From Gammaproteobacteria bacterium (GTDB lineage: Bacteria; Pseudomonadota; Gammaproteobacteria; UBA4575): a DNA stretch of 64,000 nt. The notes under the pieces were generated by a model. It had not been told where the DNA came from and ran no database searches. It saw only the letters and a list, made by a program, of their open reading frames with translations. Both the position numbers and the translations under genes were made by a program. Below, one piece after another: positions 38,630 to 48,477 of the stretch (position 1 is its first letter; each line of letters starts with the position of its first letter). Where the stretch lies: positions 96,001 through 160,000 of the forward strand of contig CBDEUS010000002.1 of the NCBI GenBank assembly GCA_965243395.1, written 5' to 3'.

Positions 38630-39643
38630 TTAGTCAGATTCTAGGTTTTTTCTGTAGTTTCCTGGGGACATCCCAGTAATTTCACGAAATGCCGAGTAGA
38701 AGTTGGACTGGGACTTAAACCCGTTTGCTAAGCCTACAGAAAGTACTGATGCATTAGGCTCATTGGTTAGCATATTTTTAGCCTCAGTAACGCGTCTTTC
38801 TCTTATGAATCGAGGAAATCCACAGTCATATTGTGTATTGATTAATTCAGATAATTGATGACTATTAATATCGAGCATTTCTGCAAGCATGCTTAAACTT
38901 AGGTTCTCATTTTGATAAACCTTGTCATCATTCATAAGTTTTTCTAAAGAAGCACGCACAGATTCAACATTGATGCCTCCTAAAGTAGATTTTGCGTAGG
39001 CAGCTTCCGTAATTTCAACAATGTCACTTAGCAATTCAGGAAAGATAATTACCGATGCTGTAACTAATAACATTGCAATCCCTATTGAAGAGGCATATGC
39101 GCCAAAAAAGATTGTGTGGTTTATATAAGGCACAGATAAACCGAGTATCAAAGCTAACAAAGCCATCAACGCAAACAACAAACCAAAGAATATTTCAAAT
39201 TTGAAACGACTACTCTGAGGGCGTAATTGGAAAATAATTCTTGCAATCCAAAATGTATATCCTGTTCCAATTAAAAAAGCGATTACCGGAATTATTTTTA
39301 CAGGAAGAAATAAACCTATAGCGACTGGCACAAAGTGAAGAATATGATAGATGCTTAGCTTCGATTCCGGGAATAAAACTACTCGACTGAAAAAATAAAA
39401 CGTCATTGGAACAAAAAGCAATAAATATAAATATCCACGATTATTGAGTAAATCAGTATCGTTGGAAAAATATAGATAATGCCAAAATTGCAAACCAGAA
39501 AGAGAAATCAGCAATGCAACACAAGACAACTTGCTGATGAAGTTCTTCCTAATATTTGGGAGAAAAAATAAATATGAAAAAAGAAGAATAACTGCGCTGA
39601 ATATAGAAAACCCAGCTATCAATTGTACAAATGTAGATACCAT
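38630..39643 (-). CDS. Membrane-anchored AraC-family regulator
   Basis: About 7 TM followed by HTH GFKSQSNFYSAFREITGMSP. Confidence 0.88.
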   Translation of the reverse strand: MVSTFVQLIAGFSIFSAVILLFSYLFFLPNIRKNFISKLSCVALLISLSGLQFWHYLYFSNDTDLLNNRGYLYLLLFVPMTFYFFSRVVLFPESKLSIYHILHFVPVAIGLFLPVKIIPVIAFLIGTGYTFWIARIIFQLRPQSSRFKFEIFFGLLFALMALLALILGLSVPYINHTIFFGAYASSIGIAMLLVTASVIIFPELLSDIVEITEAAYAKSTLGGINVESVRASLEKLMNDDKVYQNENLSLSMLAEMLDINSHQLSELINTQYDCGFPRFIRERRVTEAKNMLTNEPNASVLSVGLANGFKSQSNFYSAFREITGMSPGNYRKNLESD

Positions 39644-39811
39644 CTTATTGTTCTTGTGCCCCAGCTAAATATACATCTACATTCTATATGTGATTAGCCG
39701 ACATGTATTCATCGGATCAATAAATTTAAGCCAAATAAAAACAGTAGATTACGATTTATATGACTCTTGTTTGAATAATATCCACCGTACTTCCACCAAA
39801 GTATTGATTAT

Positions 39812-40594
39812 CTATACCCAAGTGCTATTCAAGGTATCCCTAAAATAGTTATTTAAACCCTCAGCTTCAGCCTCAGAGCTTTTTTGAGCAAATTTTGTGT
39901 CCTCTAATCGATTTAATTCAGATTCAATAAACTCATTTAGTACTGTAATCTTTTCTGAAGTATCTTTCTCAAATCCAGATTTTTTTCGCTCTAGCAAGTT
40001 ATTTATGGCACTAAGAAGCTTATTGTCATCAACTAACTTTTCTATTAGTTTGGAAAATTCAGTGGGCACCACGCCATAATCATTTTCTATCCATTGCACT
40101 GCTAATAATGGGCGAAGAACATAAAAATATTTTTTTAAACGAACTTGTTCTTTCTGCAAATGCTCTTTATATGTTCTTTTAGCCATACTTAAATAATGAT
40201 AGGCGCATGAAACTGGTGAAAAACTTTTTGGGAGTAAGTTTTGAAACCCATCAGAAAATTTTTCCTTATCTTTATAGACAATAGGAGACCCTATCCACTC
40301 AATCAAAGGTGGATTAGATTTTCGTAACAATCCGAGTGCCTTTCTCAGATCCCAACCATTTATATCAAGCAAATCATCTATAGGTAATTCGATCACATCT
40401 CTTTTGTGTTCAAGATCAATAGATAGATACCACTCAGGTGGATGTATATAAATAAAACGTACGTCAAAATCACTATCTTTAGATGCAAACCCCCACGCTC
40501 GACTACCCGATTCACAGGCATACAAAACTTGAACATTATATTCATCTTCAATTTCATCAAGCTTTTGAAGGATCTCTTCTTTTCTTTCTATCAT
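39812..40594 (-). CDS. Pol-beta-superfamily nucleotidyltransferase (RlaP/YcgL-like, RtcB-associated)
   Basis: ESGSRAWGFASKDSDFDVRF, WDLRKAL, NPPLIEW, KKYFYVLRP. Confidence 0.88.
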   Translation of the reverse strand: MIERKEEILQKLDEIEDEYNVQVLYACESGSRAWGFASKDSDFDVRFIYIHPPEWYLSIDLEHKRDVIELPIDDLLDINGWDLRKALGLLRKSNPPLIEWIGSPIVYKDKEKFSDGFQNLLPKSFSPVSCAYHYLSMAKRTYKEHLQKEQVRLKKYFYVLRPLLAVQWIENDYGVVPTEFSKLIEKLVDDNKLLSAINNLLERKKSGFEKDTSEKITVLNEFIESELNRLEDTKFAQKSSEAEAEGLNNYFRDTLNSTWV

Positions 40595-40602
40595 AGGTAT
40601 AT

Positions 40603-40902
40603 CTAGAAAAAAGTTTTAACAGTTAAAACTATTCCTAAGATTGGTAGCAATAAAAGCCAAATAATAAATATAGTGGCAATTAATATATTAGCTAAATACG
40701 AAGACTCCACTCCTTCGTCTTCCCAATCTTCATCTGCACAAATTACAGATACAAAATCTGAATTAAACTCAACATTAGAATGTTTATTATCAATTGCGAT
40801 ATCAATCGCATCTTTTAGTAACATTAAACCATCCTTATTGCCTGCAATATTATCTTCATATCTTTCACTGTAAATTTTTACCCAAGCTGTTTCATTATAC
40901 AT
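40603..40902 (-). CDS. Hypothetical protein with C-terminal TM
   Basis: AGGAG RBS; lies between rtcB and the nucleotidyltransferase. Confidence 0.6.
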   Translation of the reverse strand: MYNETAWVKIYSERYEDNIAGNKDGLMLLKDAIDIAIDNKHSNVEFNSDFVSVICADEDWEDEGVESSYLANILIATIFIIWLLLLPILGIVLTVKTFF

Positions 40903-40916
40903 TCAACTACTCCTAA

Positions 40917-42113
40917 CTATCCTTTTACACATACAACTTGACGCAAAGTGTGTTCAACGCTTACTAAATCATTTTGGTTTTCCATCACCACATCAATATC
41001 TTTATATGCGCCAGGAATTTCATCTAACACACCTTTGTCTTTACGACATTCAACACCAGCCGTTTGCGCTTCAATATCTTCTTCATTGAAATGGCGTTTT
41101 GCTTTACCACGACTCATACGTCGACCTGCACCATGCGAACATGAACTAAATGATTCAGGGTTACCTTTGCCACGAACAATGTAAGATTTAGCGCCCATAC
41201 TACCCGGAATAATTCCAAGCTCATCCACACCAGCACGAATCGCACCTTTGCGTGTAATGTAAACATTTTCACCAAAATGGTTTTCCATAGACACATAATT
41301 ATGATGACAATTGATGGCTTCTTTAGTGATACCAAATTTCGGTAACACTTTTTTTAATGCATCAATTATCAAGCGCATCATTTCTTTGCGATTTTCCATT
41401 GCGTAATCTTGAGCCCAGTTCACTGCATTTACATAGTCATCAAAGTGCTCTGCCCCTTCAGTAAAATATGCTAAATCTTTATCTGGCAAATTATGAATAT
41501 GCTTTTGCATATCTTTTTGTGCTAATCGAATAAAGAATTGGCCAATAATATTCCCTACTCCACGGCTACCCGAATGAAGCATAATCCATACATCATTATT
41601 TTCATCTAAACAGATTTCAATAAAATGATTCCCACCACCAAGTGTGCCTAGTTGACGCACCCAAGTTTGATAAGGCTTTTTCTGCATCTTTAAAAGTTTG
41701 GGGTGTTTTTCTAGTAAGCGATCTAAACCGTCAGATAAAGGTCGTATAGTTGAATTGCGAGCTTTATCTGACTTATGCATATCAAAACCAACAGGTATTG
41801 CAACTTCAATAGCAGTACGCACTTTGCGTAAGTTATCTGGAAGATCATTAGCATTCATTGAAAGACGCAAAGCATTCATTCCACAACCAATGTCTACACC
41901 AACCGCAGCAGGAATAATTGCACCTTTACATGGAATTACCGAACCCACAGTCGCACCTTTACCAAAGTGCACATCCGGCATCGCCGCAATATGACTATGG
42001 ATAAAAGGCAACTGTGATAGGTTGCATAGTTGCTGGTAGGCTTCGTGCTCTATGTCATCAGTATAGATTTTTACTCGCACATTACCTTTGGTAATGACTT
42101 TTTTAATTGGCAT
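40917..42113 (-). CDS. rtcB: RNA ligase RtcB
   Basis: MPDVH, VGVDIGCG, GGGNHF, HSGSRG, HNY, SHGAGR, AYK. Confidence 0.96.
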   Translation of the reverse strand: MPIKKVITKGNVRVKIYTDDIEHEAYQQLCNLSQLPFIHSHIAAMPDVHFGKGATVGSVIPCKGAIIPAAVGVDIGCGMNALRLSMNANDLPDNLRKVRTAIEVAIPVGFDMHKSDKARNSTIRPLSDGLDRLLEKHPKLLKMQKKPYQTWVRQLGTLGGGNHFIEICLDENNDVWIMLHSGSRGVGNIIGQFFIRLAQKDMQKHIHNLPDKDLAYFTEGAEHFDDYVNAVNWAQDYAMENRKEMMRLIIDALKKVLPKFGITKEAINCHHNYVSMENHFGENVYITRKGAIRAGVDELGIIPGSMGAKSYIVRGKGNPESFSSCSHGAGRRMSRGKAKRHFNEEDIEAQTAGVECRKDKGVLDEIPGAYKDIDVVMENQNDLVSVEHTLRQVVCVKG

Positions 42114-42125
42114 ATGTCACCCTAA

Positions 42126-42367
42126 TTAATCTCTAAAATATTCATTTCTATTAGAACCATCATGTCGCTTTTTCTTCAAGCAACAATTCTTGAAATCTAC
42201 GCCCTGATCCACATACACATGGATCATTCCGGCCGAACTTCTCGCTAAGTTCTTTATTGCCATGAACGATTCTATTTCCTCGTTTAACGTTTGTTTCTGA
42301 TGGGAATCCTTTACGACGTTTACTCATACGCTCAAAAGGATTGATCCTTATTTTTAAATTTACACAT
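42126..42367 (-). CDS. SEC-C motif protein split over three frames (two +1 shifts)
   Basis: GAGGTG-ATG 42367; middle frame [14 protein letters not shown]; the +1 frame continues FKNCC...EYFRD*. Confidence 0.7.
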
Positions 42368-42393
42368 GTTGCACCTCACATTACTAAACTAAA

Positions 42394-42780
42394 TCAGTTG
42401 TATTTTTTGCGATAGTTACTGGTAAAAGGTTGCGCAACAATTTGATAATCATCTTGATAGCGTATCCTTCCAATTTCCTCACATTTAATCATATCTACAG
42501 CAATACCTTTATTTTGTATTACAGAAAAGAGCTTCCACATAACGCGTATATGCTCTTGTGCACTAGGTTTAAACCAACACAGGCAGCGATAGTTACCGGG
42601 TATCTTCAAAATAGGAGGCACAATTAAATTTCTATCAATCCATCTAAACACATATTGAACTTCTTCATATTCATAATCAGTGAATGAATTGTTGTATTTT
42701 AGCTTGTACGCAAGATGTATTAGGCCTTGTTCATAACGTGACCTCCTGTCTTGGCACAGCCCAATAAATCGTAAGTACAT
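42394..42780 (-). CDS. Hypothetical protein in the rtcB operon
   Basis: 128-aa ORF, CLCWFK, YQDDYQIVA. Confidence 0.7.
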   Translation of the reverse strand: MYLRFIGLCQDRRSRYEQGLIHLAYKLKYNNSFTDYEYEEVQYVFRWIDRNLIVPPILKIPGNYRCLCWFKPSAQEHIRVMWKLFSVIQNKGIAVDMIKCEEIGRIRYQDDYQIVAQPFTSNYRKKYN

Positions 42781-42869
42781 TTTTAATATCCATTTATATT
42801 ATTTCTCAAATTTAATTAAATGACGCAGGCCCTCAAATAATAGAGGGCCTTTGTCAGTTTATACTCACG

Positions 42870-44018
42870 CTACCCATCAACTTTGATTTGTACCGTGTCT
42901 TTTAGGATGCCATCCAAACCTCCGAAGACAGTTAGTTTGTCTACTTTGTCAGTGACTTTTTCCAACGTCTCCAACTCTTTCAAGCGCATCAAGGTTGGGT
43001 TGTCATCCATCAATTTCGCAGTGTTCAACAATGAACGTGTAGCTGCAGTTTCTTCACGTCTTTTAATGACATTTGCTTGCGCCACTTTTTCTGCTTGAAC
43101 TACTTGGTTCAAGATATCTTTCATGTCGCCTGGCAAAATGACATCTTTCACGCCAACGCTGCGAATTTCGATACCGTATTCAGATACGTTTGCTTTAACA
43201 GATTCGTAGACGTATTTGTCTAGTTCATCTTTAGTTACAAGCAATGCATCCAAAGTGCGTGTACCAATTACCTGACGAAGTGCAAATTGCATTTCGCGGT
43301 AAATGTATCCAGCAAGGTCTACCAATTCATGACGCGCTTTAATTGGGTCACGAATTTGATATTGAGCTGACAAGTTTGCACGTAGGCTAACTTTGTCTTT
43401 TGTCAAAACCTCTTGACCTTGCACTTCCATGCTTTGCATTCGCAAATCAACTTGTTCAACTATTACGTTGCGGTTGTATTTCCAGTATGCGTACAAGCCT
43501 GGTTGCAATGATTCTTTTAATTCACCATCCACAACCAATAGGCCAACATAGTTGTCTGCAACTTCTGCGATGTAAATTGAATTAATCAATTCACTTGGTA
43601 CTTGTTTCGCACGTGTGTGCACAAACTGACCCACTTTATTTGCAGGCAATGCAAAATCTTCTGCAATATTTTGCACTTCAACTGTCATTTCAACTGGACC
43701 TTTCCAAAATAATTGGCGTGTACCAGGTGCTACAACAGTGCTCAATTGGCCACGTTGATAAACCAATCCAACTTCATATGCGTCGGTTTCAACAACTTGG
43801 AAGTATTTTGTTACTATCTCAGGTTGTTCTTTTACCAAGACATCCACATATTTGTGGTTGAATTGCGCTTCCGTTACATCATAAATCTCGACTTGAATTC
43901 GGCCGAAAATATCGAAATATCGATATACGCCTGGTTCAAGCACTTTTACAATGCTTCGGTTTTTCAAGTAAATTCCTCGCTCATGCTGCGCAATAACAAT
44001 TCTTTTAAATCCGAACAT
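42870..44018 (-). CDS. Slipin-family SPFH/band-7 protein
   Basis: GQEVLTKDKV, RREETAATRSLLNTA, LMRLKELE. Confidence 0.92.
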   Translation of the reverse strand: MFGFKRIVIAQHERGIYLKNRSIVKVLEPGVYRYFDIFGRIQVEIYDVTEAQFNHKYVDVLVKEQPEIVTKYFQVVETDAYEVGLVYQRGQLSTVVAPGTRQLFWKGPVEMTVEVQNIAEDFALPANKVGQFVHTRAKQVPSELINSIYIAEVADNYVGLLVVDGELKESLQPGLYAYWKYNRNVIVEQVDLRMQSMEVQGQEVLTKDKVSLRANLSAQYQIRDPIKARHELVDLAGYIYREMQFALRQVIGTRTLDALLVTKDELDKYVYESVKANVSEYGIEIRSVGVKDVILPGDMKDILNQVVQAEKVAQANVIKRREETAATRSLLNTAKLMDDNPTLMRLKELETLEKVTDKVDKLTVFGGLDGILKDTVQIKVDG

Positions 44019-44044
44019 AATTACTCCTTATTAAATAAAGTTTC

Positions 44045-44515
44045 GGGAAATGCTCCACATATAAATTGCGGGTAAACTCCTGTTGTAGTAACGGGTCTAA
44101 AATCTTTCGCATGTCATTGCGATACCCCAACTATCGCTTTGAACATGTTTCAGTCTCTAGACTGGTTATCACAAGCTTGTGATCACGCAGGCAATCTACA
44201 TGTTGCGACATAAAAAACTCTCAACCGTAGTTGAGCTATTTGAAATGTCGCGGGAACATTTCCCTGGTTAGTGTTTTCACACAAAATGCGGATTCGAACC
44301 GCAGGCTTTCGCCATTACCAATGAACAACGTTTAAAGTTGTCGAAAGAACAGGAATCGAACCTGCAACATTTCCGTTATCAGCGGAATGCTCTCCCTTTG
44401 AGCTATCTTTCACTGGTGTATCGGACCACTTACAACTTTGTATACACATTGCAATCACCTTTCGGCTTAGCTTTTGTGCACAGGTCTGAATTCAAGAATC
44501 AGATCCGCTAAGTAA
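44045..44515 (-). ncRNA. Candidate highly structured ncRNA/leader upstream of slipin
   Basis: Dense hairpins, GNRA tetraloop GGC-GAAA-GCC, stand-alone T-arm TGCGG-TTCGAAT-CCGCA, nested tRNA-like domain. Confidence 0.6.
44341..44412 (-). tRNA. tRNA-Ile(GAT)-like domain lacking encoded CCA
   Basis: Full cloverleaf, TTCCG-CT-GAT-AA-CGGAA, GGTTCGATTCC. Confidence 0.65.
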
Positions 44516-44636
44516 ATAAATGTCTCTCAATACTCATGAACTCAATGTTTATAAAACATCGAATTACAATTCTTTAAATACAGGTGACCTGCCCCATTGC
44601 AGGCCACCATTTTTCACGCCCCCTTTCTCCTAAAAT

Positions 44637-45203
44637 TTAACGTCGCTCTTTAGGACATTGTGTTTTCAAGAACGCCATTTGGTCTGCCAAAATTTTGCGG
44701 TTAGATAAAATCAATCCTTCTGCATAATTTGGCTCATATGGAATTCCTAATAATGAAATTCCTATTCTTTCTGCCTCACTAGGCATTAAGCTATCTTTAC
44801 GTGCATTACATGCACGGCATGCTGTAACCACATTCATCCATGTGTTTTTCCCACCACGTGATAGTGGAATCACATGATCGCGCGTTAAGCGATTTCGAGA
44901 ATATTGATCACCGCAATACATGCACATGTAATCATCACGTCGAAACAATCTTGCATTTGTCAGTGCAGGCACTTCACGAATGTGGTCGTCTGATCGCATC
45001 ACACCATGTGTTGCAACAATACTGTTCACATCAATAAATGAACGAGTTCTTGTTCTGCGATTTACACCACCATGAATACGAAAAGAATTTGAACCCATTT
45101 CGTAAACAACTTGTTCTCGTGCATACACTAATGCTGCATATTCCCAGTTCATCCATTCAACTGGACGCCCAGCTACGTCTAAACGCAAAATTAAATTTTC
45201 CAT
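44637..45203 (-). CDS. HNH endonuclease
   Basis: RRDDYMCMYCG, TRDHVIP, NVVTACRACN. Confidence 0.92.
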   Translation of the reverse strand: MENLILRLDVAGRPVEWMNWEYAALVYAREQVVYEMGSNSFRIHGGVNRRTRTRSFIDVNSIVATHGVMRSDDHIREVPALTNARLFRRDDYMCMYCGDQYSRNRLTRDHVIPLSRGGKNTWMNVVTACRACNARKDSLMPSEAERIGISLLGIPYEPNYAEGLILSNRKILADQMAFLKTQCPKERR

Positions 45204-45231
45204 TTAACTTTTCTCTTTTATAAAGTTACTG

Positions 45232-45254
45232 TTTAACAATTTGGATGATTGAAG
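45232..45254. repeat. Trailer arm of perfect 23-bp inverted repeat enclosing the tRNA array
   Basis: TTTAACAATTTGGATGATTGAAG = reverse complement of 48565-48587. Confidence 0.95.
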
Positions 45255-45263
45255 AGTTTAATT

Positions 45264-45340
45264 TGGTACGCAGCCCCAGATTTGAACTGGGAATCAAGTA
45301 GGTTTGAGCTACTCAGGTCTTCCAATTGCCTCAGCTGCGC
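45264..45340 (-). tRNA. tRNA-Leu(CAA), short variable loop
   Basis: AGTAG-CT-CAA-AC-CTACT, CCA. Confidence 0.85.
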
Positions 45341-45352
45341 AAAAATTTAATT

Positions 45353-45429
45353 TGGTATCCCTGGCAAGATTCGAACTTGCAACATTCTGGTTTTAAGTCA
45401 GATGCGTCTTCCGGTTGCGCCACAGGGAC
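45353..45429 (-). tRNA. tRNA-Leu(TAA), short variable loop
   Basis: TCTGA-CT-TAA-AA-CCAGA, CCA. Confidence 0.85.
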
Positions 45430-45440
45430 GTAATGTAATT

Positions 45441-45518
45441 TGGTAGCCACCCTCGGATTTGAACCGAGATGCACCATGTTCTAAGCATGGTAGGTATGCC
45501 AATTCCCGTCAGATGGCC
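45441..45518 (-). tRNA. tRNA-Leu(TAG), short variable loop
   Basis: CCATG-CT-TAG-AA-CATGG, CCA. Confidence 0.85.
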
Positions 45519-45561
45519 AAAATTTTTATTTTTATAATTTAGTTATACATAAATTATGATT

Positions 45562-45637
45562 TGGTACCCCTAGTAAGATTCGAACTCACATCAACTGATT
45601 TAGAAGATCAGTGCTTTTCCAATTAAGCTATAGAGGT
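45562..45637 (-). tRNA. tRNA-Arg(TCT)
   Basis: CTGAT-CT-TCT-AA-ATCAG, CCA. Confidence 0.9.
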
Positions 45638-45659
45638 AAAAAACTAATTGAATTATTTT

Positions 45660-45756
45660 TGGTACCCCAACCAAGATTCGAACTTGGATCTACCACTAAT
45701 CTGGTGCGTGAATCACGGGATATAAATCCGCTGCTTTACCGTTAAGCTATTGGGGC
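45660..45756 (-). tRNA. tRNA-Ile(TAT) with ~27-nt extra region
   Basis: GCGGA-TT-TAT-AT-CCCGT, 97 nt, CCA. Confidence 0.75.
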
Positions 45757-45765
45757 AAAATTTTT

Positions 45766-45839
45766 TGGACACTCCGCTCAGAATTGAACTGAGTCCTCAA
45801 GGGTTGCAACCTTGCGTCTTGCCGATCGACCACGGAGTG
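45766..45839 (-). tRNA. tRNA-Cys(GCA)
   Basis: CAAGG-TT-GCA-AC-CCTTG, U73, CCA. Confidence 0.88.
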
Positions 45840-45840
45840 T

Positions 45841-45915
45841 TGGCACATCCGGAAAGATTTGAACTTTCATCTTTGGGTTTGGAGGCCAATGTTCTGCCAA
45901 TTGAACTACAGATGC
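45841..45915 (-). tRNA. tRNA-Trp(CCA)
   Basis: CT-CCA-AA loop, G73, CCA. Confidence 0.88.
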
Positions 45916-45917
45916 TC

Positions 45918-45993
45918 TGGCTGGGAGTCCTGGACTCGAACCAAGATCTCAAGAGTCAAAGTCTTGCGTCTTAACCAGTTAGACGAATTCCCA
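45918..45993 (-). tRNA. tRNA-Gln(TTG)
   Basis: CAAGA-CT-TTG-AC-TCTTG, U1-A72, G73. Confidence 0.9.
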
Positions 45994-46002
45994 TTTTTGT
46001 TT

Positions 46003-46079
46003 TGGCGCGGTTGGAAAGACTCAAACTTTCATCTTCGACTTTCGTAGAGTCGTGCTTTATCCGATTAAGCTACAACCGC
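46003..46079 (-). tRNA. tRNA-Arg(ACG)
   Basis: CGACT-CT-ACG-AA-AGTCG, CCA. Confidence 0.9.
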
Positions 46080-46087
46080 AAAAACTT

Positions 46088-46163
46088 TGGTAGCCCGAAT
46101 CCGATTCGAACGGATAACTTTCGCTTTGTAAGAACGACACTCTGCCAATTGAGTTATCGGGCT
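46088..46163 (-). tRNA. tRNA-Val(TAC)
   Basis: TCGTT-CT-TAC-AA-AGCGA, CCA. Confidence 0.9.
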
Positions 46164-46171
46164 AAAATTTT

Positions 46172-46243
46172 TGGTAGTTACGGTTAGAATCGAACTAACA
46201 AGTCCAGGGTTATGAGCCCTAGCCGAAGACCACTTCCGTAACT
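46172..46243 (-). tRNA. Initiator-like tRNA-Met(CAT) with aberrant short D-arm
   Basis: TAGGG-CT-CAT-AA-CCCTG (3 G-C pairs), 72 nt, CCA. Confidence 0.75.
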
Positions 46244-46251
46244 AAAGTATT

Positions 46252-46325
46252 TGGTGGATCCAGTAGGAGTCGAACCTACCTCTGCGGGTTAAAAGCCCGC
46301 TGCACAACCGCTATGCCATAGATCC
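46252..46325 (-). tRNA. tRNA-Lys(TTT)
   Basis: GCGGG-CT-TTT-AA-CCCGC, CCA. Confidence 0.9.
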
Positions 46326-46326
46326 T

Positions 46327-46402
46327 TGGCACGCCTGAAAGGAGTTGAACCTTTATCTCACTGGTTCGAAGCCAGTGGCTCTTCCAATTAAGCTACAGAC
46401 GT
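46327..46402 (-). tRNA. tRNA-Arg(TCG)
   Basis: ACTGG-CT-TCG-AA-CCAGT, CCA. Confidence 0.88.
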
Positions 46403-46404
46403 AT

Positions 46405-46495
46405 TGGCGGAGAAGAACAGATTCGAACTGTTGAATGAAAAATTTCCATCCCTCCTTTAGCAAAGGAGTGCTTTAAACCACTCAGCCACTTCTCC
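46405..46495 (-). tRNA. tRNA-Ser(GCT)
   Basis: CTCCT-TT-GCT-AA-AGGAG, long variable arm, G73. Confidence 0.9.
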
Positions 46496-46555
46496 AATTT
46501 ATAATTTGCAGCGCTTCGCGATATTTAATTTGCGAGTAATACCCACTCGCAAGCG

Positions 46556-46631
46556 TGGGGTGAACTACCGGACTCGAACCGGTATCTACCAGATTCACGT
46601 TCTGGGGCTTTGCCATTAAGCTAAGCTCACC
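46556..46631 (-). tRNA. tRNA-His(GTG)
   Basis: CCAGA-AC-GTG-AA-TCTGG, encoded G-1 and C73. Confidence 0.88.
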
Positions 46632-46642
46632 ATAATTATTTT

Positions 46643-46734
46643 TGGCGGAAGGCGGAGGGCACGATCCCCACCAACTAAAAAGCCAGCCACCAGTTTTCAA
46701 GACTGGGACACCCCCACTGGGTGAATCACCTTCC
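46643..46734 (-). tRNA. tRNA-Ser(TGA), non-canonical 8/4 fold
   Basis: CCAGT-CT-TGA-AA-ACTGG; 8-bp acceptor GGAAGGTG/CGCCTTCC, 4-bp T stem, long variable arm, G73. Confidence 0.8.
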
Positions 46735-46749
46735 TTATATATGTAAATT

Positions 46750-46824
46750 TGGAGCGGATAATCGGATTCGAACCGATATTTATGGTTTGGAAGACCATCA
46801 CTCTGCCAATTGAGTTATACCCGC
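46750..46824 (-). tRNA. tRNA-Gly(TCC)
   Basis: ATGGT-CT-TCC-AA-ACCAT, U73. Confidence 0.9.
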
Positions 46825-46829
46825 AGATT

Positions 46830-46907
46830 TGGTCTGAGTGGCTGGATTCGAACCAACGACCTCTCGCTTCCAAGGCGAGTACTCTGCCCAGGCTGAGCTA
46901 CACTCAG
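46830..46907 (-). tRNA. tRNA-Pro(TGG)
   Basis: CTCGC-CT-TGG-AA-GCGAG, C1-G72. Confidence 0.9.
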
Positions 46908-46934
46908 AGAATTAATTAAATATAAAAAATTATT

Positions 46935-47010
46935 TGGTGCATCGAGTTGGACTTGAACCAACGACCACACGATTATCGGTCGTGCGCTCTACCAACTGAG
47001 CTATCGATGC
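46935..47010 (-). tRNA. tRNA-Ile(GAT)
   Basis: CACGA-CC-GAT-AA-TCGTG, CCA. Confidence 0.9.
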
Positions 47011-47011
47011 T

Positions 47012-47086
47012 TGGTGTTCCTGACCAGAATTGAACTGGCATCTCGAGTTTGAAAGACTCGTGACCTCACCATTAGTCGACAGGAAC
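47012..47086 (-). tRNA. tRNA-Glu(TTC)
   Basis: CGAGT-CT-TTC-AA-ACTCG, CCA. Confidence 0.9.
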
Positions 47087-47100
47087 TAATAAAATATTTT

Positions 47101-47176
47101 TGGCGGACCCGATCGGACTCAAACCGACATCCCCTTTATCGACAGTAAAGTGCTTTATCAATTAAGCTACGAATCC
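47101..47176 (-). tRNA. tRNA-Asp(GTC)
   Basis: CTTTA-CT-GTC-GA-TAAAG, G73. Confidence 0.88.
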
Positions 47177-47184
47177 AACTTTTG

Positions 47185-48045
47185 TTTAAAGGTTGAGACT
47201 ATGCCTTTAAAAATCACTCTTTTGTTGAAGTACCTAACGCATTGCTGTGCGATAGTTGCCAACGTGTCCACATTACCCTGGTTGCTCCAGCGATTATGTT
47301 AGTGATCATGACTGCTTTTTTTAAAGTGTAGCGATTCACTTGTCGCGTTAATCTATTCAGCTATTCACTTACCGAGAACCTTGCCAGGCTCTAAACGGAG
47401 GCTATCCGAACGTGCAATGAAGTAACTAAAGTTCTTTGGCTTGCGACCGCAGAATCTTCCATGTTCCCAAGTGGGCATGGACTTAAGTCATTTTCAATTA
47501 ACACCGAGACGCGTCTTTGCGTTTCACCGTATGGTGATCTATGTGGGAGTCGAACCCACGACCTATTGATTCTAAGTCAATCGCTCTACCAATCTGAGCT
47601 AAAAGATCAGGTACTACTAAGACGTGCACGTCTCAGTTGCTTCATTATTTTTTGAATAACGAAATACAACACGCCTTTTGTCTTTCCTCTGCCGAGTACT
47701 TAACCGAATATTCGGATCATGGCTTCCACCCATTTCCCTAATAATCTGCACAACCGCACTTGTCTGCAAAACTCGTACTATGTTGTACTACCTGTTATCT
47801 CTCGTAGTACGCAATCTAGTATCACGGGTTACAGCACTACCTGTATCTTTCTCACGACCCGTATTCCCAAGTAAACCTGGTACGTCAATCGTGGTACTTC
47901 CGCGTATTGCTTGGCTACTATTGCCGATTGAATTACGACAACATGGAGACCAGGCTTGCTTGGTTTGACCTACTTTGAAAAGTGGGCGAAATACCGTAGT
48001 CGTATTCCTTTCCTATCGTTGCCGATAGTTATCGTGCCAAGCCAC
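47185..48045 (-). ncRNA. Large structured ncRNA, GOLLD-like, with nested tRNA
   Basis: ~860 nt with no credible ORF inside the tRNA array, many stems, repeated ACAGGTAGT motif, 3' hairpin TTTAAAGG-CATAGTCTCAA-CCTTTAAA; family assignment from recalled properties, not a search. Confidence 0.6.
47532..47608 (-). tRNA. Class-I-shaped tRNA with TAG (Leu) anticodon nested in the large ncRNA
   Basis: ATTGA-CT-TAG-AA-TCAAT, GGTTCGACTCC, CCA; one acceptor-stem mismatch. Confidence 0.8.
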
Positions 48046-48050
48046 ATATT

Positions 48051-48126
48051 TGGTGGAGGATCACGGATTTGAACCGTGCGCCTTCTGTTTGCAATACAGA
48101 CGCTCTGCCAACTGAGCTAATCCCCC
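48051..48126 (-). tRNA. tRNA-Ala(TGC)
   Basis: AT-TGC-AA loop, G3-U70. Confidence 0.9.
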
Positions 48127-48135
48127 AAACTTATT

Positions 48136-48210
48136 TGGCTGCGACGGTTGGACTCGAACCAACATTGCTTCGCTTAACAGACGAATGTTCTACCATTGAA
48201 CTACATCGCA
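48136..48210 (-). tRNA. tRNA-Asn(GTT)
   Basis: TTCGT-CT-GTT-AA-GCGAA, G73. Confidence 0.9.
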
Positions 48211-48218
48211 ATTATATT

Positions 48219-48295
48219 TGGTGCATCAGGATGGATTCGAACCACCATCGCGTCGGGCTTCAACCGACCGCTCTACCCATTGGAGCTACCGATGC
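48219..48295 (-). tRNA. tRNA-Phe(GAA)
   Basis: GTCGG-TT-GAA-GC-CCGAC, CCA; unrelated in sequence to the att-type Phe fragments. Confidence 0.88.
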
Positions 48296-48304
48296 AAAAA
48301 TAAT

Positions 48305-48389
48305 TGGTGGAGAGAGATGGATTCGAACCACCACGCTAATAATTAGCACTGGGTTACAGCCAGCGTGTCTCACCAATGACTGTCTCTCC
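48305..48389 (-). tRNA. tRNA-Tyr(GTA)
   Basis: CTGG-CT-GTA-AC-CCAG, variable arm GCTAAT-T-ATTAGC. Confidence 0.85.
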
Positions 48390-48401
48390 TAAAGTTAAAA
48401 C

Positions 48402-48477
48402 TGGAGCTGGTGATAGGCGTCGAACCTACAACCTACTGCTTACAAAGCAGTTGCTCTGCCATTTGAGCTACACCAGC
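48402..48477 (-). tRNA. tRNA-Thr(TGT)
   Basis: ACTGC-TT-TGT-AA-GCAGT, CCA. Confidence 0.9.

Follow-up and report, generated by a model that had tools for sequence, protein, structure and literature searches.

In the programmed +1 frameshift of prfB (CUU UGA C), a short first frame ends at a stop codon, and with that stop codon in the aminoacyl (A) site the transfer RNA (tRNA) in the peptidyl (P) site slips by +1 onto UUY. Besides prfB, very few bacterial cellular genes contain, to our knowledge, a conserved programmed +1 frameshift; UUU-Y is said to have been addressed by Schwartz and Curran in 1997 and by Fu and Parker in 1994, and hungry codons by Gallant and Lindsley. Here we describe a small gene at positions 42126-42367 of a 64,000-nucleotide stretch of gammaproteobacterial DNA (hereafter the window; contig CBDEUS010000002.1, positions 96,001 to 160,000), which lies upstream of the RNA ligase gene rtcB and encodes a predicted SEC-C zinc-knuckle protein. 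Our analysis suggests that this gene probably makes its full protein only via two programmed +1 ribosomal frameshifts. Comparison of homologous sequences lends good support to the view that such frameshifting is obligatory in one small family, occurs there in series and is evolutionarily mobile.

The window gene shares with prfB a short first frame, a stop codon in the A site and a presumed P-site slip onto UUY. In contrast to prfB, which has one shift site, genes of this family have two to four and lack an internal Shine-Dalgarno (SD) stimulator; their A-site codons are mixed, with no logic specific to release factor 2, and their product is a zinc-knuckle protein rather than a release factor. 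The same tetranucleotide as in this family is found at the UUU_Ynn sites treated in passages of PMC5009743, which describe UUU_Ynn as especially prone to +1 frameshifting in bacteria; at these sites, including that of Yersinia YopN-TyeA, tRNA-Phe re-pairs as well and an adjacent stop codon is not needed. YopN-TyeA-type shifting, as portrayed there, involves a single site and a minor fusion product, whereas in the present family the shifts would be obligatory for the only conserved product, serial and spread over many phyla. The same passages give UCC_UUU_CGU as the minimal influenza PA-X cassette, and the commonest site 1 of the family, (U/Y)CC UUU CGA, is nearly the same (TTT CGA in 82/152 loci). 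Amalgavirus UUU_CGN +1 sites (PMC3498833, PMC5880360) likewise resemble site 1 of the family. The PA-X and amalgavirus sites lie in eukaryotic viral messenger RNAs and yield an accessory protein at about the per-cent level, in contrast to a bacterial cellular gene with several sites. Genes that need several shifts are known from ciliates (Euplotes) and some mitochondria, according to the same portions of PMC5009743, and these also have several obligatory +1 shifts in one coding sequence; there, however, recoding is genome-wide, whereas here it concerns one small family in ordinary bacteria whose neighbouring genes are unbroken. A full-text literature search turned up neither a description of a SEC-C gene with frameshifts nor one of a bacterial cellular gene that needs +1 shifts in series. 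The main text of the GeneTack study (PMC3711429) contains none of the terms SEC-C, UUU, TTT or zinc, and its supplementary cluster tables could list the family.

Results

Layout and predicted product of the gene

The gene is encoded on the minus strand, and the coordinates and SD sequence proposed for it in a first-pass annotation of the window proved correct on reading the sequence and calculating duplex energies. The SD sequence GAGGTG (42377-42372, minus strand) serves the leader start ATG 42367-42365, with an anti-SD duplex energy of -6.9 kcal/mol, compared with -3.1 for ATG 42327 and -4.5 for the rtcB start. The leader frame (42332..42367) comprises 11 codons including the slip codon and ends at TCC TTT TGA (42340-42332). 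At shift site 1, UCC UUU UGA G (42331..42340), the tRNA would move from UUU 42337-42335 to UUU 42336-42334, with GAG next. The second frame (42193..42336) reads FERMSKRRK...CVCGSGRRF up to shift site 2, AGA UUU CAA G (42189..42198), where the move would be from UUU 42195-42193 to UUC 42194-42192, with AAG next. Both breaks thus fall on UUU followed by a pyrimidine, as had been noticed from the sequence at the outset. The third frame (42126..42194) begins FKNCC and ends at TAA 42128-42126, 12 nucleotides ahead of the rtcB ATG 42113. Ribosomes that do not shift at site 2 would meet a TGA stop codon at 42160..42162 and give a product without the last two Cys residues. An in-frame AUG (42325..42327) lies 4 nucleotides past the leader stop codon and is codon 14 of the trans-frame product; it is a possible reinitiation start and opens an open reading frame (ORF) of 55 amino acids (42160..42327). 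This AUG was overlooked in the first-pass annotation, as was an array of 25 tRNA genes just upstream. The third frame is also called as a 45-amino-acid ORF (42126-42263) from ATG 42263. As the first-pass annotation had pointed out, the ORF track misses the gene, and gene callers shorten or skip it.

Reading both +1 shifts gives the 79-amino-acid zinc-motif product that had been predicted, and the gene would accordingly encode a basic SEC-C zinc-knuckle protein. The SEC-C zinc-binding motif CxC...CC (42177..42231) is split by shift site 2. The unshifted product matches Pfam PF02810 with 26.1 bits (profile positions 1-14 of 19) and the shifted product with 35.3 bits (1-18 of 19, residues 33-50); the gathering score of 20.4 bits is exceeded either way. 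No Pfam or NCBIfam model covers the protein outside the SEC-C motif, and NCBIfam gave matches to SEC-C tails below threshold only and no family model. The metal-binding peptides of SecA and YchJ (9l6b_C, 1sx0_A) were the only matches in a profile search of the PDB, and an ESM Atlas search gave SEC-C clusters only. AlphaFold2 prediction of an in-frame homologue (P0006, 37-row alignment) gave a poor model (mean predicted local distance difference test score 58, predicted template modelling score 0.36). SecA has the motif CxCxSG(x)6-8CC in its C-terminal domain, and YchJ and YecA have it in their SEC-C tails. Proteins of the window family, in contrast, are free-standing, about 80 amino acids long and built around this motif, and they also have a basic N-terminal half and a DG..R..YFR[ED] tail, both conserved. 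The SecA metal-binding domain is reported to bind SecB and ribosomes (bioRxiv 10.1101/613315).

Frame breaks recur at fixed Phe codons across the family

A protein search with the shifted product in a set of 5.8 billion proteins returned 449 relatives with a very conserved core. At the DNA level we used the best 80 of at least 590 matches in species-level genomes and the best 80 of at least 569 metagenome matches. In all, 75/81 loci of the genome set and 77/80 metagenome loci were parsed (152 loci), and sites 2-4 were scored in 145 of them (73 + 72), with site states assigned by custom regular expressions. A first, stricter pattern had missed 17 metagenome loci, 15 of which fit the scheme by eye, while L115 and L124 remained unparsed. 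Up to four interruptions, always at the same positions, occur in the family protein of about 80 amino acids, and each falls on a conserved Phe codon (rarely Leu) of the form NUU followed by a pyrimidine (NUU+Y). The first-pass annotation had left open that homologues might be in frame at its two breaks. Instead, the breaks are kept across many phyla with the same tetranucleotide, and L003 alone among the 145 loci has no shift at any of sites 2-4. The reading of two conserved +1 shifts was thus supported, and two further sites of the family had gone unnoticed. At these, the window frame is intact: His replaces Phe at site 3, and site 4 reads TAT TTT AGA GAT TAA.

At site 1, the leader junction, NUU+Y is present in 75/75 genome and 76/77 metagenome loci (151/152), at a fixed distance of 13 nucleotides ahead of the Ser codon in most loci. 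The commonest forms are TTT CGA (82) and TTT TGA (32), and TTT CAY, TTT TAC, TTT CCA, ATT CGA, CTT CGA and others also occur. Site 2 is shifted in 20/73 genome and 24/72 metagenome loci (44/145). Of 45 shifted junctions scored here, 37 are TTT CAA and 4 are TTT TAA, with TTT+Y in 43, and unshifted members mostly carry TTC AAG. That the extra base is a pyrimidine after TTT fits re-pairing of tRNA-Phe, and would not be expected of chance indels or sequencing errors. Site 3 is shifted in 48/73 genome and 45/72 metagenome loci (93/145), with the forms TTT TGA (64), TTT CGA (16) and CTT TGA (3, in genome-set loci). The last is literally the prfB sequence, of which site 1 of the window, UUU UGA, is the UUU version, so that the resemblance to prfB already seen in the first-pass annotation extends to a second site of the family. 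In Acidobacteriota, site 3 is CTT CGG and lies a few codons upstream. Site 4, after ...YF, is shifted in 53/73 genome and 58/72 metagenome loci (111/145), as TTT TAG (60), TTT CAG (28) or TTT CCG (15), and the +1 frame there gives R[ED] followed by a stop codon. The Arg is spelled both AGR and CGN, which points to selection on the amino acid.

The sites occur in varying combinations. Among the 145 loci, 73 are shifted at sites 3 and 4, 21 at sites 2 and 4, 15 at site 4 only, 15 at site 2 only (the window type), 12 at site 3 only, 5 at sites 2 and 3, and 2 at all three, in addition to the single locus in frame throughout and one odd locus (L011) that is shifted at site 2, needs +2 in the site-3 region and is in frame at site 4. 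At least one shift besides site 1 is needed in 144/145 loci. The pattern suggests that sites have been exchanged over evolution and never all lost. Two metagenome loci (L161, L167) have all four shifts, the maximum seen, with TTT TGA/CGA at site 1, TTT CAA at site 2, CTT CGA/TTT CGA at site 3 and TTT CAG/TAG at site 4. The family, present in at least 590 species-level genomes, thus appears to need serial +1 slips at fixed Phe codons in all scored members but one, and its genes could serve as natural, tunable reporters of reading-frame maintenance.

The breaks are also visible in protein databases. Among 120 listed matches to called proteins, the break falls at site 2 in 28 and at site 3 in 75; 9 pass through both sites, and no more than 3 keep the frame up to their end. 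Database proteins of 55 amino acids end in G[CR]F at a stop codon, and their DNA continues with FDGVNRDHYF in the +1 frame, homologous to the tail of the window product; the widely annotated 55-amino-acid 'SEC-C domain protein' is therefore likely a truncated call of the protein of about 80 amino acids. Annotation pipelines miss or mislabel the gene, which is unannotated in CP114562 and split in the window.

A few loci depart from the scheme and were set aside as odd or possibly damaged members. Besides L011, these are L102, with a leader apparently fused in frame, L018 and L148, which is the sole parsed locus with a stop codon in block B, where 151/152 have none. In L018 (Lysobacter sp. CA196, 2620-2660) the break comes one codon late, TTC AAG G AAT TGT TGT, with no obvious re-pairing, and may reflect a different site, damage or an assembly error.

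Proposed serial slippage and its possible meaning

How the ribosome would traverse the window gene can be outlined by analogy with established +1 slippage, on which the P-site mechanism proposed here is modelled. Translation would start at the SD-led ATG 42367. At codon 11, peptidyl-tRNA-Phe would sit on UUU with UGA in the A site, slip +1 onto UUU and allow GAG to be decoded; 47 codons on, tRNA-Phe would slip from UUU to UUC and the C of CAA would be skipped. In general, a tRNA on NUU would shift to UUY at a moment when nothing occupies the A site. The last two Cys residues of the zinc motif and the conserved tail would then be read, with termination 12 nucleotides ahead of rtcB. Ribosomes that fail to slip would stop at 42332 or 42160 and yield an 11-amino-acid peptide or a product without a complete zinc site. 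The 0-frame A-site codon is UGA at site 1 and CAA at site 2 of the window, and across the family UGA, UAA, UAG, CGA, CAA, CAG and CCG are all used.

Several observations weigh against this reading. Foremost is efficiency: two or more inefficient serial shifts would yield very little protein, and a high slip efficiency is unexplained, which is the main gap in the reading. In-frame TTT-Y makes up 10/50 Phe codons in neighbouring genes, and a tetranucleotide so ordinary does not by itself ensure efficient slipping. No SD-like stimulator was found in the 15 nucleotides before the slip codons, where shifted and in-frame loci are alike (median anti-SD energies of -0.6 kcal/mol at site 1 and -3.2 at both shifted site 2 and shifted site 3), and the predicted RNA fold of 42085-42215 does not differ from shuffled sequences (z -0.15), giving no sign that the rtcB SD is masked. 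Site 4 could partly be plain termination after Phe. In the census, 9/161 loci were unparsed by the regular expressions, some contigs occur in both the genome and the metagenome set, and related genomes cannot be counted as independent. Site 2 is confirmed only by contigs, not raw reads, from the likely source sample and at low depth, and none of the public runs containing the stretch is listed as RNA. Finally, rtcB is not the usual neighbour of the gene, being found downstream in 6/64 loci. One lead on efficiency is that leaders of constant length, roughly that of a ribosome footprint, might in combination with a strong SD promote ribosome collisions, which are reported to alter frameshifting at IS3, dnaX and prfB motifs (PMC6815119). 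We nevertheless favour two programmed +1 shifts in the window gene.

What such shifts would be for is a separate matter. The first-pass annotation had thought of a sensor of fidelity or tRNA damage, and the genomic context described below allows us to suggest a role as a sensor of tRNA or ribosome damage, although only tentatively. Output would be the product of two to four slip probabilities and could thus act as a steep gauge of slow A-site filling. In the most specific form of this idea, which we regard as doubtful, the gene would work with repair partners as a damage gauge in which slips at its two to four NUU-Y sites occur when A-site filling falters. The triggers would be tRNA cuts by anticodon nucleases, a damaged decoding centre or a switch to the variant tRNAs of the genomic island, and the product would act on ribosomes or RNA alongside a spare tRNA set and repair enzymes such as RtcB. 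If true, it would be the first switch in bacteria to read out the maintenance of the reading frame as such. More generally, the family may be a switch reading decoding stress, and it links frameshifting with RNA repair and with arrays of spare tRNAs.

It is also possible, if hardly the expected case, that the shifts are real and constitutive, and serve to fix a very low output of a potent basic nucleic-acid-binding protein without any damage sensing. This would agree with the lack of a regulatory element at the sites, with the fact that about 50/64 downstream ORFs are unrelated, and with the range of A-site codons, as all three stop codons and several sense codons leave no single factor to be read out. 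However, a weak SD would be a cheaper way to low output, and the SD that the family retains is strong (median -9 to -10 kcal/mol). Moreover, sites are gained and lost, by a weak tree, while 144/145 loci keep at least one besides site 1, and linkage to tRNA arrays and RNA-repair genes recurs.

A conserved slip motif at the leader junction

The leader comprises 11-13 codons in 86/106 scored homologues, and its end residues are conserved (acidic, Q/E, P/S, F/S/C, F). The strongest SD within 80 nucleotides belongs to a start that needs a +1 shift in 60/72 genome and 60/73 metagenome loci (120/145). Median anti-SD energies are -9.1 (genome) and -10.0 kcal/mol (metagenome) for the best start, compared with -1.8 kcal/mol for the codon before SKRRK.

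An alternative that accepts only site 2 as a shift treats the leader as a separate upstream ORF, after which ribosomes reinitiate at AUG 42327 to make a 66-amino-acid product. The AUG 4 nucleotides past the leader stop codon speaks for this route and adds to the points against a shift at site 1, as do loci in which the leader is in another frame. In about 20/145 loci, mostly from Planctomycetota, the junction is T7+CGAG and the leader frame would need +2 or -1; all 11/11 such loci of the genome set keep an ATG that overlaps the leader stop codon (ATGA), as coupling predicts. In these loci, reinitiation or coupling seems the likelier route from the sequence, and either coupling or two successive slips along the U run could be involved. 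Examples are L015, L026, L027, L029, L030, L038, L050, L058, L062 and L078 (about 2440-2500 in each). Across the family, a start codon is present at the position of the window AUG in 82/152 members. The remaining 70/152 (27/75 genome and 43/77 metagenome loci) have a codon other than ATG, GTG or TTG before SKRRK, among them the rtcB-linked relatives L036, L065 (ACC) and L070 (ACT), and reinitiation has no start there. In addition, the F-E-x residues ahead of the position-42327 codon are conserved in the SKRRK frame, the slip motif is retained in nearly all parsed loci, and AUG 42327 has no SD of its own. For the window gene we therefore consider reinitiation unlikely and retain a +1 slip at site 1 as the preferred explanation.

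Each frame segment evolves as coding sequence

Substitution patterns in the homologues are of the coding type in every segment. Third-position entropy exceeds that of positions 1 and 2 in every block, shifted or in-frame: 0.46 / 0.36 / 1.50 in the SKRRK block (68 loci), 0.69 / 0.46 / 1.25 (shifted) and 0.57 / 0.48 / 1.32 (in-frame) in the K.CC block, and 0.69 / 0.55 / 1.28 (shifted) and 0.92 / 0.50 / 1.38 (in-frame) in the DG..R..YF block. Differences between the window and L032 by codon position are 7/5/33 in the middle block and 7/6/11 after site 2, and those between the window and L065 after site 2 are 6/4/13. These figures indicate purifying selection in each frame segment, as judged from the sequences. 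At the conserved in-frame Phe codon of GFPSE, TTC is used by 38 loci and TTT by 5. Genes shifted at site 2 include a 14-row group from Pseudomonadota, Planctomycetota, Verrucomicrobiota and Vulcanimicrobiota; such a group across four phyla suggests that the shifted state has been kept through long divergence and transfer. The tree behind this grouping is weak, as it contains 68 conceptual proteins and no starred branch, and its fewest numbers of changes (6, 9 and 10) are rough.

The sequence of the window itself was compared with contigs of four public runs, none of which shows an indel. Logan contigs of runs X1 and X3 match 41900-42600 with 0 differences and 0 gaps; both runs come from one sample, possibly the source of the assembly itself, with a word depth of only 3.3-3.9. 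From other studies, a 151-nucleotide contig of X5 covers 42332-42482 with 0 differences and a contig of X6 covers 42195-42345 with 1 difference and no gap. The sequence of site 1 is confirmed in two independent metagenomes.

Taken with the census, these data make it very improbable that the window gene is a pseudogene or a product of homopolymer sequencing errors. Such an explanation could draw on the two breaks within 240 nucleotides, both beside T runs, on the calling of 55- and 45-amino-acid fragments only, and on the failure to find the gene with this query in 14 same-genus genomes searched. It would have to account for the recurrence of exactly these breaks, tetranucleotide included, in dozens of genomes and metagenomes of distant bacteria, for the coding-type substitutions after each break and for independent contigs that agree at site 1. 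The marks of a pseudogene, namely private lesions, further stop codons, lost key residues and relaxed selection, were not seen in the window gene, whose breaks are shared with distant homologues and so are conserved features of the family rather than private damage. A truly decayed copy looks different: in a Candidatus Manganitrophus plasmid (CP114562.1; L095:2440-2720), the gene has an internal TGA, CC has become CF and the slip site is changed. This copy is unannotated and lies between an integrase gene and a pair of genes for a SIR2-family and an ATP-binding protein.

Separate translation of the third frame from ATG 42263, without a shift at site 2, is equally hard to credit. That ATG does have a moderate SD-like stretch (-5.9 kcal/mol), lies 72 nucleotides before the Phe codon and has counterparts in L010, L036 and L065. 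However, of 45 site-2-shifted loci, 17 are without any start codon in the open +1 stretch, only 14/45 have an ATG there and 11/45 any start with an SD of -5 kcal/mol or below; the resulting peptide would hold only two of the four zinc ligands, and in-frame homologues are one continuous protein. Restoration of the frame in the RNA by transcriptional slippage or editing at T runs is most unlikely, for although T6-T7 runs can support polymerase slippage and occur at site 1 in some Planctomycetota members, the T runs comprise no more than 3-4 residues at window site 1 and, in all loci, at sites 2-4, CTT TGA and ATT CGA variants have no homopolymer, and the need for a pyrimidine fits codon-anticodon re-pairing.

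Genomic neighbourhood and a second tRNA set

The window gene lies in an island encoded on the minus strand, in the order tRNA array with an HNH gene inside, SPFH gene, 128-amino-acid ORF, leader and SEC-C gene, rtcB, 99-amino-acid ORF and rlaP. The rtcB gene (40917..42113) encodes a 398-amino-acid RNA ligase (Pfam RtcB, E 6.2e-131, positions 1-426 of 426). Downstream of it and of the 99-amino-acid ORF (40603-40902), which has a hydrophobic stretch at its end, follows the gene for an RlaP-family nucleotidyltransferase (39812..40594; Pfam PF10127, E 2.9e-96). Upstream of the leader are the 128-amino-acid ORF (42394-42780) and, between this region and the tRNA array, the SPFH gene (42870-44018). 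Neither the 99- nor the 128-amino-acid ORF has a Pfam or NCBIfam match, no rtcA or rtcR was found among the eight neighbouring ORFs scanned, and a search of 39500-45600 against Rfam (E<=1) gave tRNAs only and nothing on the gene. With rtcB and rlaP in one cluster, the window resembles RtcB-RlaP operons. A preprint describes RtcR-regulated rtcB-rlaP-rtcA operons and cites Burroughs and Aravind on RtcB-RlaP operons (bioRxiv 10.64898/2025.12.29.696909); its main text makes no mention of SEC-C, a frameshift, a small protein or zinc.

The array of 25 tRNA genes (44340..48477) lies upstream on the same strand as the leader and contains, between two tRNA genes, a gene for a 188-amino-acid HNH endonuclease (44637-45203) with NCBIfam matches below threshold to the HNH parts of IscB and Cas9d. 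In six other loci, or seven with the window's own gene counted, a relative of this HNH gene (37-78% identity) adjoins the small gene. Of the 61 tRNA genes in the genome, 36 lie outside the array and by themselves make up a complete set. Each of the 23 anticodons in the array is also present in this housekeeping set, with only 44-70% identity between the copies, and the array thus looks like a foreign, divergent second tRNA set beside RNA-repair genes. Several of its anticodon loops are altered. In tRNA-Phe (48219-48295) the loop is UUGAAGC compared with housekeeping CUGAAAA, and G37 replaces A37; in tRNA-Pro(UGG) (46830-46907) it is CUUGGAA compared with UUUGGGA, and A37 replaces G37; in the tRNA-Leu(UAG) genes (45441-45518 and 47532-47608) it is CUUAGAA compared with UUUAGGU, again with A37 in place of G37; and in tRNA-His (46556-46630) it is ACGUGAA compared with UUGUGAU, with C33 in place of U33 (all on the minus strand). 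In arrays at other loci, tRNA-Phe(GAA) carries G37 in 3/4 cases, and in 4/5 with the window included. Bacterial tRNA-Phe has ms2i6A37, and TrmD needs G36-G37; in view of position-37 modification, the array tRNA-Phe with G37 would be expected to be slip-prone. Phage tRNAs with altered anticodon loops are known, as is RtcB2-PrfH.

At least two same-strand tRNA genes adjoin the small gene in 24/164 family loci, and in L051 it lies within an array of 18 tRNA genes. Cultured bacteria that carry the gene include Stieleria magnilauensis TBK1r (L051), Pelomonas cellulosilytica P8 (L052), Massilia pinisoli JCM 31316 (L073) and Acidobacteriaceae KBS 96 (L044). Downstream neighbours in 64 loci include, besides the six RtcB genes, Hen1 (2), RNA ligase (2), Thg1 (2) and HNH (2), the rest being diverse, and tblastn with the window RtcB found a match in 10/81 loci. 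With RtcB so seldom downstream, the gene is not an rtcB leader as such. A coupling to rtcB translation, as suggested in the first-pass annotation, would be conceivable from the context. The link to tRNA supply and RNA repair is recurrent and not universal. Upstream neighbours in a Pfam census of 62 loci are heterogeneous, with PcfJ-like (4) the commonest and Band_7 in 2. The PcfJ-like carriers are perhaps L010, L036, L065 and L047, going by the size of their upstream ORFs alone (about 450-480 amino acids).

With this query the gene was not found in the 14 same-genus genomes mentioned above, in which matches were SEC-C tails of ORFs of about 905 amino acids. A phage collection held no family match, only three family loci are on viral contigs, and of plasmids there are two records, both of the decayed Manganitrophus copy. 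Just outside the window, 36 nucleotides past its end, ARAGORN calls a tRNA-like sequence on the minus strand (G000:C2:160036-160110) with anticodon cagc in an eight-base loop, which could be a false call or a tRNA resembling frameshift suppressors.

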